Source of the DNA: Massalongia carnosa
Taxonomy: Eukaryota
Direction of reading: 5' to 3'
NCBI GenBank assembly: GCA_965645245.1
Contig: OZ287077.1
Location: 248,001-312,000 of the forward strand
DNA length: 64,000 bases
Positions 1 to 4,266 of the stretch are shown piece by piece. Position numbers and translations under genes: made by a program. Every line of letters starts with the position of its first letter. Position 1 is the first letter of the stretch. Under the pieces are notes generated by a model. That model was not told where the DNA came from. It searched no databases and saw nothing but the letters and a program-made list of their open reading frames with translations.

Positions 1-910
1 GTAAATTCAAATTCCGTCTTCATGCTACATGAAAACCAGATAGGTAATGTCTCTTTTAGGATAATACTCTCGTCAAGTACAGGTGCGAATAAAGAATACC
101 ATAAATCTGAATGATCGAGATATGCAAACAGGTTAAGCAATTTTGCAGCGCTCGCGTCATTACGTTGCACATATTCATAGGAAATGGTGTACGTAGATAA
201 AATGCTACGAGGATAATCTTTTAATCGGGTCGTTTTGTTGTTGTGAAGCTTCTCCCAAGTCTATTCATAGTATCGAATATAGTCGTTCACACTTGTAGTC
301 GTTCCGTGGATATAGGAGCCTGCATGAGCAAGTGCCAGTGGGAGACCACCCACTTTCTCGACGATCCTATCAAGGCCTATAAAATGCTTAGTAAATTGGA
401 TTAAGACTGTTGCTGGAATTTCATTACCTTCAACTGATCGTCCTATCCTGCATCGTAATACTTCTGCTCCTTGTAGATCGCTCATCCTTCCAAGTTGCCG
501 GTCCTGCCCGTGTTGTCGAAGCTGTCGTAATCGGCTTGTGATTAAAATAGCGCCATGATCGGCTTCCGGGAAAAAATCTTCCACATCATATGATTGAGGA
601 TCATTTACCTCAGGGGAATTATCACGATCGACATTATCGAAAATGAGAAGCCATTGATTGCTTTCATGTTGACTGAACCAAATAAGAATATTGCTAATGA
701 TTTCATCTAGCTCTTCAGGGGATGTTTTAGAGAATTTTCTACATGAATCCGGAATCTGATCTGGGGGTAATTGCCGAGCAATCTGTGCAAGACTTTGACG
801 TACACTTTCCTTACTTTCGCCGTTTAGCCAAAAAATAGAACTGAAAATCTTCTGTGATCTTTGAGCGAACTCGATCGCTAGCTGAGTTTTGCCGGAGCCG
901 CCCAGTCCGT

Positions 911-2239
911 CACGCGGGGGACAAAAAAAAAACTACACCAAAATTTAACCGGGTTCAACCCCCCACCAAAACACAAGCAATTTCCATACAATTTTGATGG
1001 GATAATCACCATTTCAACAACCAGTCATCCAATTCATTCAATCTATTCAATAACCAGTCATTTTACCCTCACCATCCAAAACAGCTCTCAATCTATCTGG
1101 CATAGTAGACACCCGTTCATTGATAAATGCCTGGGAAACGTTCGCCCACCCCTCATAAATTAGCCCCTTGGTCGTATCATCATCCCAATGAGGATATTTT
1201 TTTAAATATTGCTTCGGGGCCTGCCAGCAATTTTCTATGGGGGCCAAATCAGGTGAACATGGACAGTTGAAATAGTGCTTCAGATCGTTGTTCTGCTTCC
1301 AAGTGCGTACAATGTTTGATTTGCCTGGTCCATGTCCAGAATCACCGTCTTCTTCTAAGACGAAATCGTGTTTTGCTTCAATCCAGGGCTTCACAATAGG
1401 CTCCAATATAGAGTCGATATAGACTCGTTGACTCATCTTTCCATTGGAGTTTCCAGGAACTCTGTAAAAGTAGATATCTGACTTGAAGTCATGACCTGCA
1501 GCAGCCCAACAGTGATGTCTCTTCTTGACGGCCTCGTCTGGTTCATCTGCTTCTTGAATACAATCATGACAATAACGTTCACCTAATCTTCGTATGATGC
1601 GTAATTTGCCCTGAGGTCCCCATCCAAAGTGCACTTCGTCACTAAATCGAACTTGTTTCCAGTCTTCTGCATTTGGATATCTAGAAAGCATAGCATCTGA
1701 CCACTTCATACGAAGCTTTCTTGTCTTCTCGTTCACCCATCCCTTTCTGCACGCAATGCATTTGTGATAATCCATGGTGCCCATGATTCGTTGAATGGTT
1801 TTGCCACTGCAGTCTAGGCCTACTTCGAAGCCCAATTGCTCCCATGTAAGAGCGCGCGCCTCCATACCTTCTTCTTCCAATAGCCGTTCCATTTCTCTAA
1901 TCAATTTAGGCGTAACAATTTTGTGACGCCCACGAGCTTCAGAAACATCGGAATTATTATGATGACGGCGTGATGAGGCTCCTTCACGCAGGTATGCATA
2001 GCCCCTCGTACGTTCCACATCAAATGTGCGAAAAACATCCTCTTTGTGATAAGAAATGCCTTGCTTTTCGCAAAATTCAACGGCTCCCTGAATTTTAGCT
2101 TTGGTAGGAGTCTCGATATGTTTAGAATTCATAATAATGATAATTATCCCATCAAAATCGTATGTAAATTGCTTGTGTTTTGGTGGGGAGTTGAGCCCGG
2201 TTAAAATTTTGGTGTAGTTTTTTTTTTGTCCCCCGCGTG
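911..2239 (-). mobile_element. Tc1/IS630-like DNA transposon with ~100-bp imperfect TIRs and a 5-bp TSD (TCCGT)
   Basis: TIR CACGCGGGGGACAAAAAAAAAACTACACCAAAA starts at 911 and its inverse ends at 2239. TCCGT lies at 906-910 and 2240-2244. The empty site restores the host reading frame. Confidence 0.95.
1047..2132 (-). CDS. Tc1-like DDE transposase (DD37E), intact 361 aa
   Basis: Motifs VRFSDE, LEEDGDSGH and SPDLAPIENCW; 37 residues between the second D and the E. Confidence 0.93.
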   Translation of the reverse strand: MNSKHIETPTKAKIQGAVEFCEKQGISYHKEDVFRTFDVERTRGYAYLREGASSRRHHNNSDVSEARGRHKIVTPKLIREMERLLEEEGMEARALTWEQLGFEVGLDCSGKTIQRIMGTMDYHKCIACRKGWVNEKTRKLRMKWSDAMLSRYPNAEDWKQVRFSDEVHFGWGPQGKLRIIRRLGERYCHDCIQEADEPDEAVKKRHHCWAAAGHDFKSDIYFYRVPGNSNGKMSQRVYIDSILEPIVKPWIEAKHDFVLEEDGDSGHGPGKSNIVRTWKQNNDLKHYFNCPCSPDLAPIENCWQAPKQYLKKYPHWDDDTTKGLIYEGWANVSQAFINERVSTMPDRLRAVLDGEGKMTGY

Positions 2240-4266
2240 TCCGTGTAAAACGAACACCTTCCGGCGAGTCTCACGAGTTGGCTTGGGAAAAAGGGTATTC
2301 TTAAGGTCATTCATTTCCTGATCACGAGCTATGACTTTGGGTACACGGGGTAAGCCTTTCAAACTGAACAGCACTTTATATGAACCACTGTCTATTCAAG
2401 GATTTAGTAACTCAAGAATTATCAAGCAAACATTGACGCACATTCTCGTGTTGAAAGATTATTTCCACAAAGCTTCATTTGTTTCATCACGCTTTCCAAA
2501 GCCACATAGCGGGTTGTGGCGGCCATGATCTTGTTCTTCTGTGCTGCATCTTCGAGTCCAATACTCTCAAGCCCATGAGAAACATTGAAACGAAAGTAGC
2601 GATTCCCATCGTCGAGATCGGAATGCGCTCGATGAAAAGACTCCGCTGTTTTTTCTGTCTCTGTTGCAATGTCTTTCAACGTTTTTGCAATCTCGAAGAG
2701 GCTTGAGCCATAAGAATCTAAGGATGGAACACCGGTACCGATAGATATCAGGCATTTGATGTTTCCTCCAGCGCTTCATCTGACCACACACTTTTGGCCT
2801 CGTTCCAAAGATGTGCGACAGGATTGTTAGCCCCCACAGCCCCATCGACAAACTCTTCTTCAAACTGGCCAATTTTAACTGGATCAAAGAAGGATGATGC
2901 GGCAGATGTGGCTCGAGCTGCCTCCCAAATTCGTGTCTTATGGTACATATCTGATGATCCTCGAGAATGATACGATGTGAAAAGGACTGTGTCGGCAGTC
3001 TCTTTGCTCAGAGCGCATACAAATCTAGCTTTCATTAGTATCACTAGAATTATACGTGTAAATGCAACTTCCGAAGCACCAACACCTTGCATTGCTGATT
3101 CTCTGATCCTTTGAGGAGAGCATTTTCCCCTGCCTTCTCCTTCCGATTTACGATTTCTCGAATCGACCGTTCCAGCTCTTCCGTGTCGAATCTCCCCTGC
3201 ACGTGTCCGTTTATTGTGACACGATGCCGCTTTTTTTTAAACACTTGATCGAACAATGCGACATAGGCATCAATACATTCATCGATATTCATCTCAAGAC
3301 GACCTAGCATGATAGCAATCAATCCACCGGTACTTGTCCCTCCAATCATGTCGAAATACTCGCATGGCTTTGGCGGCGCATCCGGATTGATGATCTCCAT
3401 CAGTCGCTTGAGGATTGCGAGTGACGATAGCCCTCGCACTCCACCGCCATCAAGAGATAATAGGCATAAATCTTTATCTGGCATGATAGAAGGTCCTAGC
3501 TTTCTTCGACCTATACAACTAGCCTGGTAGGAATGTGCAGAGGCTGGCTTTGGAAATGAGTGGTATAGAAAGCATCAGTCAAGCTGTTATTGTTGCGCGG
3601 CTGAATGATATCCATATAAGGCTGAAAACGTCAAGCCCAGGCTTAACGAGATGCTTAAACAGTTACTACTGTCATCCAGGGTGCGTACAAGCTAGTAATG
3701 CCTGCCAACAGCACATTAAACCTTTTCGGTTTAAATCGTATGACGTGTTTATTGCTACTAATAATTACCCTAATCGTGCTAAACCACTTTCGGAATGAAA
3801 GAGTATCCCTTATCGACGATGATGGAAAGAAGTATGAGGTGCGTCCACGACTTCAGCGAGATACATCTTTTCGTCTCCTTTCGCACGCGCTGTTGTCTCG
3901 CGGTATCGATGTTCGGCCAGGCTGGTGATGTAAGCGGTTTCAGTCTTGTCGGCGTAGATTCGGATCACGACACAAGTCCCCCGGAATACTTCATAGATGG
4001 GATTTGACGCCTTAGCTGCTTCAAGAGCACTGTTGACTTTTCTGATCAAGACATCCGTAGGCTGGTTGGCGAAGCAAAGAACCGACTTGGAAAAAGCGAG
4101 TGAAAAGGAAAGGCAATCAGTAATTAAAGAGGCGTGGCGTACAATTAGATTAATCTTGATTTTTGCTTTAATTTTGGTGTGTATTTTAAGAATTTCAGTC
4201 TACGAGTTTCGTCCCAAGAGTTATGTCTCCTTACGACTTTTATTCCCCTAAGGCTTTTGTCCCCTC

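Follow-up and report, generated by a model that had tools for sequence, protein, structure and literature searches.

We analysed a window of 64,000 nucleotides from Massalongia carnosa (assembly GCA_965645245.1, contig OZ287077.1, positions 248,001 to 312,000), in which a transposon interrupts a host gene. The transposon body (911–2239, 1,329 bp) starts with CACGCGGGGGAC and ends with GTCCCCCGCGTG, and contains a single open reading frame (ORF) between two terminal inverted repeats (TIRs), the layout of IS630-Tc1-mariner (ITm) elements of about 1.3 kb. The TIRs align over 104 columns with six mismatches and one gap, and their outermost 33 nt are identical. The hallmark of the Tc1/mariner family is a TA target duplication, which is found at neither junction. 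Instead, TCCGT lies on both sides of the body as a 5-bp target-site duplication (TSD). The features of the element and of the interrupted gene are collected in Table 1.

Table 1 Features of the transposon, its transposase and the interrupted host gene (window positions).
Feature	Position	Strand	Basis
Left TSD copy TCCGT (host DNA)	906..910	+	Empty allele retains one copy; the joint in three runs skips 1334 bp (1329 + 5)
TIR downstream of the transposase gene, 103 bp, terminus CACGCGGGGGACAAAA	911..1013	+	TIR alignment; terminal 18-mer counts
Transposase ORF, intact, 361 aa, two helix-turn-helix (HTH) motifs and Tc1-type catalytic domain	1047..2132	-	Pfam, structure match
TIR upstream of the transposase gene, 104 bp	2136..2239	-	TIR alignment
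Right TSD copy TCCGT	2240..2244	+	Followed by GTA, so TA at +2/+3 as in the family target consensus
First catalytic aspartate D165 (FSDE)	1638..1640	-	D in 91/96 aligned homologues
Second catalytic aspartate D262 (EEDGDSGHG)	1347..1349	-	D in 94/96
Catalytic glutamate E300	1233..1235	-	E in 94/96; 37 residues past D262
YFN (residues 287–289) in place of WPP in the Tc1 motif WPPxSPDL; strongest protein marker for the 5-bp clade	1266..1274	-	N289 in 95/96
Clamp-loop end, residues 192–209, longer and acidic, candidate target-shaping segment	1506..1559	-	Alignment; role inferred from Mos1 R186/F187, as described in the covered part of PMC5481204
NB-ARC domain of interrupted host gene, P-loop onward	264..905	-	Pfam NB-ARC 5e-5
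Upstream host part: patatin exons and NB-ARC start	2245..3484	-	Pfam Patatin 9e-16 and 1e-8

The interrupted gene encodes a patatin-NB-ARC-TPR protein of the fungal NLR type, with TPR-like repeats just beyond the window edge. Excising the element together with one TCCGT (911–2244) restores VLHGLGGSGKT in the NB-ARC frame, whereas excision of 911–2239 alone does not restore the frame. The empty state was also recovered from public sequencing runs, as contigs from three of four runs (X2, X3 and X6, from three studies) skip exactly 1334 bp; the fourth run, X7, covers the element only, at a depth of 2, and contributes nothing to this result. These contigs may be from paralogues or relatives of the host gene, because that from X6 is ~90% alike. 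The host gene (261–3484, minus strand) is a pseudogene apart from the insertion, with a TAG at 261–263, a 1-bp loss near 2764, behind which the three runs have an extra C, and stops in the TPR array. Thus, the insertion may not be the inactivating event. The original prediction, made from the sequence of this stretch, had described an intact Tc1-like DD37E transposon with perfect outer TIRs of about 100 bp, TCCGT on both sides, no TA at the junctions and an empty site that restores LHGLGGSGKT in the host gene, and all of these features were borne out.

We surveyed the focal family across the genome (52 Mb, 25 contigs, labelled G000; L-numbers denote scored loci). The terminal 18-mer has 79 exact occurrences and its reversed control none. 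The family amounts to about 40 copies, and 36 of the 40 candidates scored gave matches of at least 1,200 bp. All 30 full-length copies are flanked by an exact 5-bp TSD, one of which lies in a C-run and is also compatible with 6 bp. Addition of 12 of 14 further loci (two single ends were excluded) enlarged the set to 42, of which 40 are two-ended. An exact 5-bp TSD was found at 39 of these 40 and a TA duplication at none, where the chance of an exact 5-bp match is about 1 in 1,000 per copy. The duplications comprise 30 different 5-mers and, since the TSD differs among copies, TCCGT is not part of the element. The 361-aa ORF is retained in 21 of the 30 full-length copies, and 26 of the 30 carry four or fewer differences from the consensus, indicating that the spread was recent.

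A flank-similarity rule yielded 36 insertion sites (72 half-sites, both strands counted), although shared repeats harbour a few more of these (L007/L019, L029/L211) and the count of independent sites is therefore a little below 36. The target consensus, T-A-N-[C C W G G]-N-T-A with the duplication in brackets, has a palindromic bias. T occupies position -3 in 48 and A position -2 in 46 of the 72 half-sites, C is never found at -2, and the TA step at -3/-2 is present in 27 half-sites versus 4.8 expected. The TSD has a GC content of 64% and contains TA at only 7 of the 36 sites. TA dinucleotides are enriched close to the sites, yet outside the duplication.

Several insertions share the same or adjacent sites within other repeats (L021/L069; L013/L206; L026/L027/L207/L070; L007/L019), which suggests target hot spots for different families or copies; L026/L027/L207 may alternatively have been carried along within a larger element that was duplicated. 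The focal family shows little decay of the repeat-induced point mutation type (TpA/ApT 0.56), and the genome hosts many intact, near-identical Tc1-type families side by side.

The transposase is Tc1-like by profile, sequence and fold. Pfam identified DDE_3 over the cut-off (8e-8) and HTH_Tnp_Tc3_2 under it (1e-5). The closest solved sequence is Sleeping Beauty (E-value of 6e-5 for the single sequence, 4e-18 by profile), with Mos1 at 0.26, and the IS630 profile NF033545 scored 35 bits versus 95 for a canonical Tc1 of the same genome. We used the predicted structure (overall predicted local distance difference test score, pLDDT, of 84.8) for fold searches. Foldseek matched the model to Mos1 and Sleeping Beauty (E-value ~1e-10; 5hoo at 1e-9 over the full length) and to other classes at 5e-4 or weaker, while the best hit in the VIA structure search was Sleeping Beauty (5cr4, Z of 20.4), followed by scores of 18.5 and 18.2 and then 9.6. 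The top matches, Mos1, Sleeping Beauty and SETMAR, place the model within the Tc1/mariner fold with paired HTH. The ratio of nonsynonymous to synonymous substitution (dN/dS) between families is 0.08–0.16 in four of ten pairs, dS being saturated in the other six; this purifying selection indicates that the ORF is functional and not cargo.

The 5-bp duplication is a trait of a lineage, common to a clade and not confined to one family. One search found 422 homologues of the transposase, and the named ones in the best 120 are all ascomycetes (Pyrenophora, Bimuria, Clathrospora, Botrytis, Rutstroemia and Colletotrichum). A profile search returned 495 representatives at E-values below 1e-30, and the transposase had no match in plasmid sequences. 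Within the same genome, 29 of 40 related loci (52–82% identity) have paired ends, of which 18 show an exact 5-bp match and none TA, and four of nine additional related loci show a 5-bp match. A metagenome set of 80 loci (36–70% identity) was reduced to 36 distinct scored loci by dropping 36 without paired ends, two without a flank and six duplicates. A 5-bp match was found at 21 of these, 16 by a fixed register rule and 5 that were mis-anchored there and matched in an unbiased scan. Their termini are CACGC, CACGG, CTCGC, CAAGC or CAAGT.

These surveys bear on the broader claims of the original prediction, which had proposed a fungal DD37E lineage with altered target choice and stagger, possibly undescribed and recently active. 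Recent activity is upheld by the intact ORFs and the low divergence of most copies (0–4 differences), the TSDs tabulated across copies proved variable, and neither TA-flanked copies (0/40) nor a TCCGT internal to the element were found. The altered duplication, 5 bp instead of TA, stands and is shared by the lineage, while the altered target choice is refined, since the target is not random. A fungal lineage with the 5-bp trait also stands, but DD37E had to be dropped as its defining label: the spacing between the second aspartate and the glutamate is 37 in 53 of 96 homologues and 38 in 30, ranges from 37 to 43 in 95, and does not correspond to DD34E. The longer spacing stems from an insertion after a conserved His.

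Some related loci are rearranged. Inverted copies of a related 5-bp family at L062/L063 (G000:C12, ~909–921 kb) have swapped duplications, GCTAT and CCTGT, the mark expected of a ~10 kb inversion between them. At L095 (G000:C9:1003084-1005363), a CACGC-type element carries the same ~140-bp block inverted on both flanks, and part of this block is a canonical Tc1 end; the arrangement may have arisen by template switching or by aberrant transposition. In the metagenome, internal deletion has left L188/L189 and L176 as an element of 571 bp that has CACGC ends and is flanked by a 5-bp duplication, resembling a miniature inverted-repeat transposable element. Multi-copy clade members from Pyrenophora tritici-repentis (cluster P0061) are annotated as 'HMG box protein'.

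The TA or 2-bp duplication of the superfamily is absent from the focal family, and the same approach finds TA in control families. Of 20 loci of canonical Tc1 families in the same genome, 18 have TA at either end and two are without a right end (read by eye). Two further families carry the Cys motifs of the 5-bp clade. Family Y (DD34E) has TA at three of three loci. Family X (L236–L265; e.g. G000:C4:527024-528358) is Tc1-like and DD41E with CAAGG ends, and its 11 two-ended copies comprise five TA/TA, two TT/TT and four unmatched pairs, with none at 5 bp. At 27 of 33 family X ends the dinucleotide follows a G, and the 2-bp target choice of this family is relaxed. Elements of the 5-bp clade are inserted exactly at family X termini in two places (L236:2829 and L253:2092). 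Among other families, L050–L059 and L035–L060 are larger DDE_3 elements with a second ORF, one with a long EEEVD repeat, and for the L036 family only right ends were seen, followed by TA.

Comparison of the transposases reveals motifs that separate the two groups. Members of the 2-bp group keep WPPxSPDL, together with a clamp-loop end that is short (FRSGR, FKHSGR, FKSGR) and a linker of the K/P-K/R-P type. In the 5-bp families the motif reads FNxxxSPDL and is accompanied by an NGK loop (residues 230–233 of the focal protein), a KGW-type linker and a longer, often acidic clamp-loop end; in the alignment, this end is not of the basic-aromatic xSGR type seen in the 2-bp families. The WP motif is present in 101 of 120 canonical homologues and is replaced by xN in 109 of 120 homologues of the focal transposase. 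Among 29 rows with a 5-bp TSD, 26 have xN, none has WP, and the other three are without a parsable motif. A metal site could be formed by conserved Cys and His residues (C125, C128, C188, C191, H168 and H207; ~1512–1760, minus strand) of the linker and clamp loop, which are present in 85–92 of 96 homologues. The cluster of C125, C128, C188 and C191 was considered as the switch and rejected, since the TA family Y shares it.

All 5-bp rows form one clade in three trees, with support from the Shimodaira-Hasegawa-like approximate likelihood ratio test (SH-aLRT) of 99 (77 rows), 99 (32 rows, the quick tree of a mixture-model analysis) and 100/99 (26 rows). In the 26-row tree, family Y branches first (87/93), followed by family X (92/98) and then P0245/P0394 (83/81), which retain WPP. 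We consider it probable that the 5-bp state derived from TA via a relaxed 2-bp state like that of family X.

Taken together, the element is very probably an autonomous, recently active cut-and-paste transposon of a Tc1-derived fungal clade that joins its ends 5 bp apart. A number of observations weigh against this. One of the 40 two-ended focal copies (L205) has unmatched flanks, and no exact 5-bp match was found at 11 of the 29 related loci of the genome and 15 of the 36 metagenome loci. Mis-anchored ends, swapped flanks and end deletions explain part of these, and some of the 15 metagenome misses are probably short contigs with flanks from different insertions. Others remain, including L146, with a single instance of a 7-bp direct repeat (CCCAGGT) in place of 5 bp, and L148, with TA-like ends. 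(L134 also looked TA-flanked and was rejected as a TA member, its right end being CACGC-type and its left end carrying a deletion.) The clamp loop of the model is of low confidence (188–197). The motif changes all fall on one stem branch and so amount to a single correlated event, which does not show that they cause the 5-bp state. Finally, the nesting nodes (87/93, 92/98 and 83/81) lie under the starred threshold, the root is one long IS630-like branch, and the trees are without Tc1, Sleeping Beauty, impala, TRT or Zator reference sequences; derivation from TA is thus likely, not demonstrated.

Three other explanations were weighed. Transib/RAG-type elements have CAC termini and a GC-rich 5-bp duplication, and the CAC...GTG ends and GC-rich TSD (64%) of the focal family are reminiscent of them. 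The ends might then be moved in trans by another 5-bp-cutting enzyme of Transib/CMC type, with the Tc1-like ORF as a passenger. We regard this as very improbable, since the termini change with the transposase lineage (CACGC, CTCGC, CAAGC, CAAGT) while the 5-bp TSD stays constant, and family X has CAAGG ends but 2-bp duplications. Moreover, purifying selection acts on the ORFs, which have kept the DDE triad, and a CAAAA box occupies TIR positions 12–16, as in the canonical Tc1 of the same genome. The Transib/CMC enzyme is unrelated to the 361-aa protein found here, which has the Tc1/mariner fold and only 37 residues between D262 and E300; the likeness in CAC ends and 5 bp is convergent. Transib/RAG-type elements are linked to CMC in the covered part of PMC12730594, and Transib is listed as absent in that of a fungal genome survey (PMC5751038). 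That the true duplication is TA or shorter, with the 5 bp arising from boundary error or element sequence, is refuted by the 30 different 5-mers, by TA lying within the duplication at only 7 of 36 sites, by the empty allele differing by exactly 1334 bp and by the host frame requiring exactly one 5-mer. Nothing in the focal family favors it, as the TA enrichment near the sites lies outside the duplication.

The third alternative sets the clade apart as a deeper ITm-related lineage of its own, in the way that Zator is treated; its 5-bp stagger would then be old and would not have arisen from a TA-duplicating Tc1. The weak similarity to the standard profile (35 vs 95 bits for NF033545) and the long stem are consistent with this, as are the 495 representatives at E-values below 1e-30, the unstarred nesting nodes and the composition of the trees without Tc1, Sleeping Beauty, impala, TRT or Zator. 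However, the clade has its Cys motifs in common with family Y (TA, DD34E) and family X (2-bp, DD41E) and stands in a graded series with them, and the nearest solved relative is Sleeping Beauty by both sequence (4e-18; Mos1 0.26) and fold. We therefore find a deep separate origin unlikely.

For the preferred Tc1-derived transposon, we propose that its own transposase would attach one element end to each target strand at positions separated by 5 bp, not 2 bp, and that gap repair would then leave a variable 5-bp duplication. In all likelihood the duplication arises from a 5-bp staggered cut by this enzyme acting as a dimer. Such a dimer would attack phosphates 5 bp apart, with the target bending at the TA steps just outside the cuts and at the weak central pair. 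Mos1 provides the comparison, as described in the covered part of PMC5481204: its target is bent by ~147 degrees and both TA adenines are flipped out, with F187 occupying the gap; the DNA backbone is gripped by R186, K190 and W159, and the adenine is recognised through the backbone of V214. For Tc1 enzymes, the same source suggests a basic-aromatic pair at the place of Mos1 R186/F187. In our alignment families X and Y have this pair, and it is not evident in the 5-bp clade. Tentatively, then, the enzyme may have abandoned the bend-flip-trap reading of a central TA, with the clamp-loop end, the NGK loop and the WPP-to-FN change perhaps holding a differently bent target with flexible TA steps just outside the cuts.

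We compared the element to known systems. With the Tc1 family (Sleeping Beauty 5cr4; fungal impala-type), it shares a length of ~1.3 kb, one intronless ORF of ~360 aa, paired HTH, a DDE domain with SPDL-x-PIE, TIRs that begin with C and have the CAAAA box at 12–16, and the best sequence and fold match. It differs in its variable 5-bp TSD, a GC-rich target core with TA steps outside, FNxxxSPDL for WPPxSPDL, a KGW-type linker for K/R-P, a longer clamp loop and a spacing of 37–43. A few ITm-related elements (TBE1, Tc4 and Zator) use 3-bp targets, and we know of no ITm-related element with a 5-bp target. Mos1 shares the fold over the full length, and at the level of the alignment the clamp-loop end appears remodelled here; according to the covered part of PMC5481204, integration in the family is strictly at TA and staggered by 2 bp, and the flipped adenines are trapped by R186/F187 and the V214 loop. 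Of the DD37E families TRT, Mosquito/ITmD37E and L18, the first two are reported with TA duplications and mainly animal hosts in the portions covered of PMC5630946 and PMC10379824, and thus differ from the 5-bp focal family. For fungal Tc1/mariner elements, TA is given where the TSD is stated in the covered parts of PMC3441728, PMC4112212, PMC12506042, PMC13728883 and bioRxiv 10.1101/2025.11.06.686975. The covered parts of PMC9977792, PMC3599309, PMC11544213, PMC6737239 and PMC5751038 contain nothing on such a 5-bp clade, and its motifs were not found in the covered supplements of PMC7325037, which may not include its alignments. Literature searches, with partial coverage of the sources and with Repbase and Dfam outside their scope, gave no description of a Tc1-like element with a 5-bp TSD. 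Lineages with an altered TSD length inside a superfamily are represented by hAT5, hAT6, hAT7 and PHISTA (PMC12730594, in part). These belong to other superfamilies, with shifts of 1–3 bp and no strict target, whereas here a strict 2-bp TA probably gave way to a loose 5-bp target.

On balance, we lean towards a widespread, undescribed ascomycete clade of Tc1 origin that moved from strict TA and a 2-bp stagger to staggering by 5 bp at a loose TA-N7-TA target, with families Y and X as living intermediates in the same genome. If so, the clamp-loop end, the NGK loop and the WPP-to-FN change would be definable candidate switches for stagger and target choice in Sleeping Beauty-type enzymes, for which altered or randomised target specificity is a named goal in gene delivery (PMC5481204, covered part). 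With an intact, recently active 5-bp enzyme beside 2-bp relatives in one genome, the determinants of stagger and target choice in this fold would be directly testable, and the element would offer a natural model for studying target choice and cleavage by gene-delivery enzymes of this kind.

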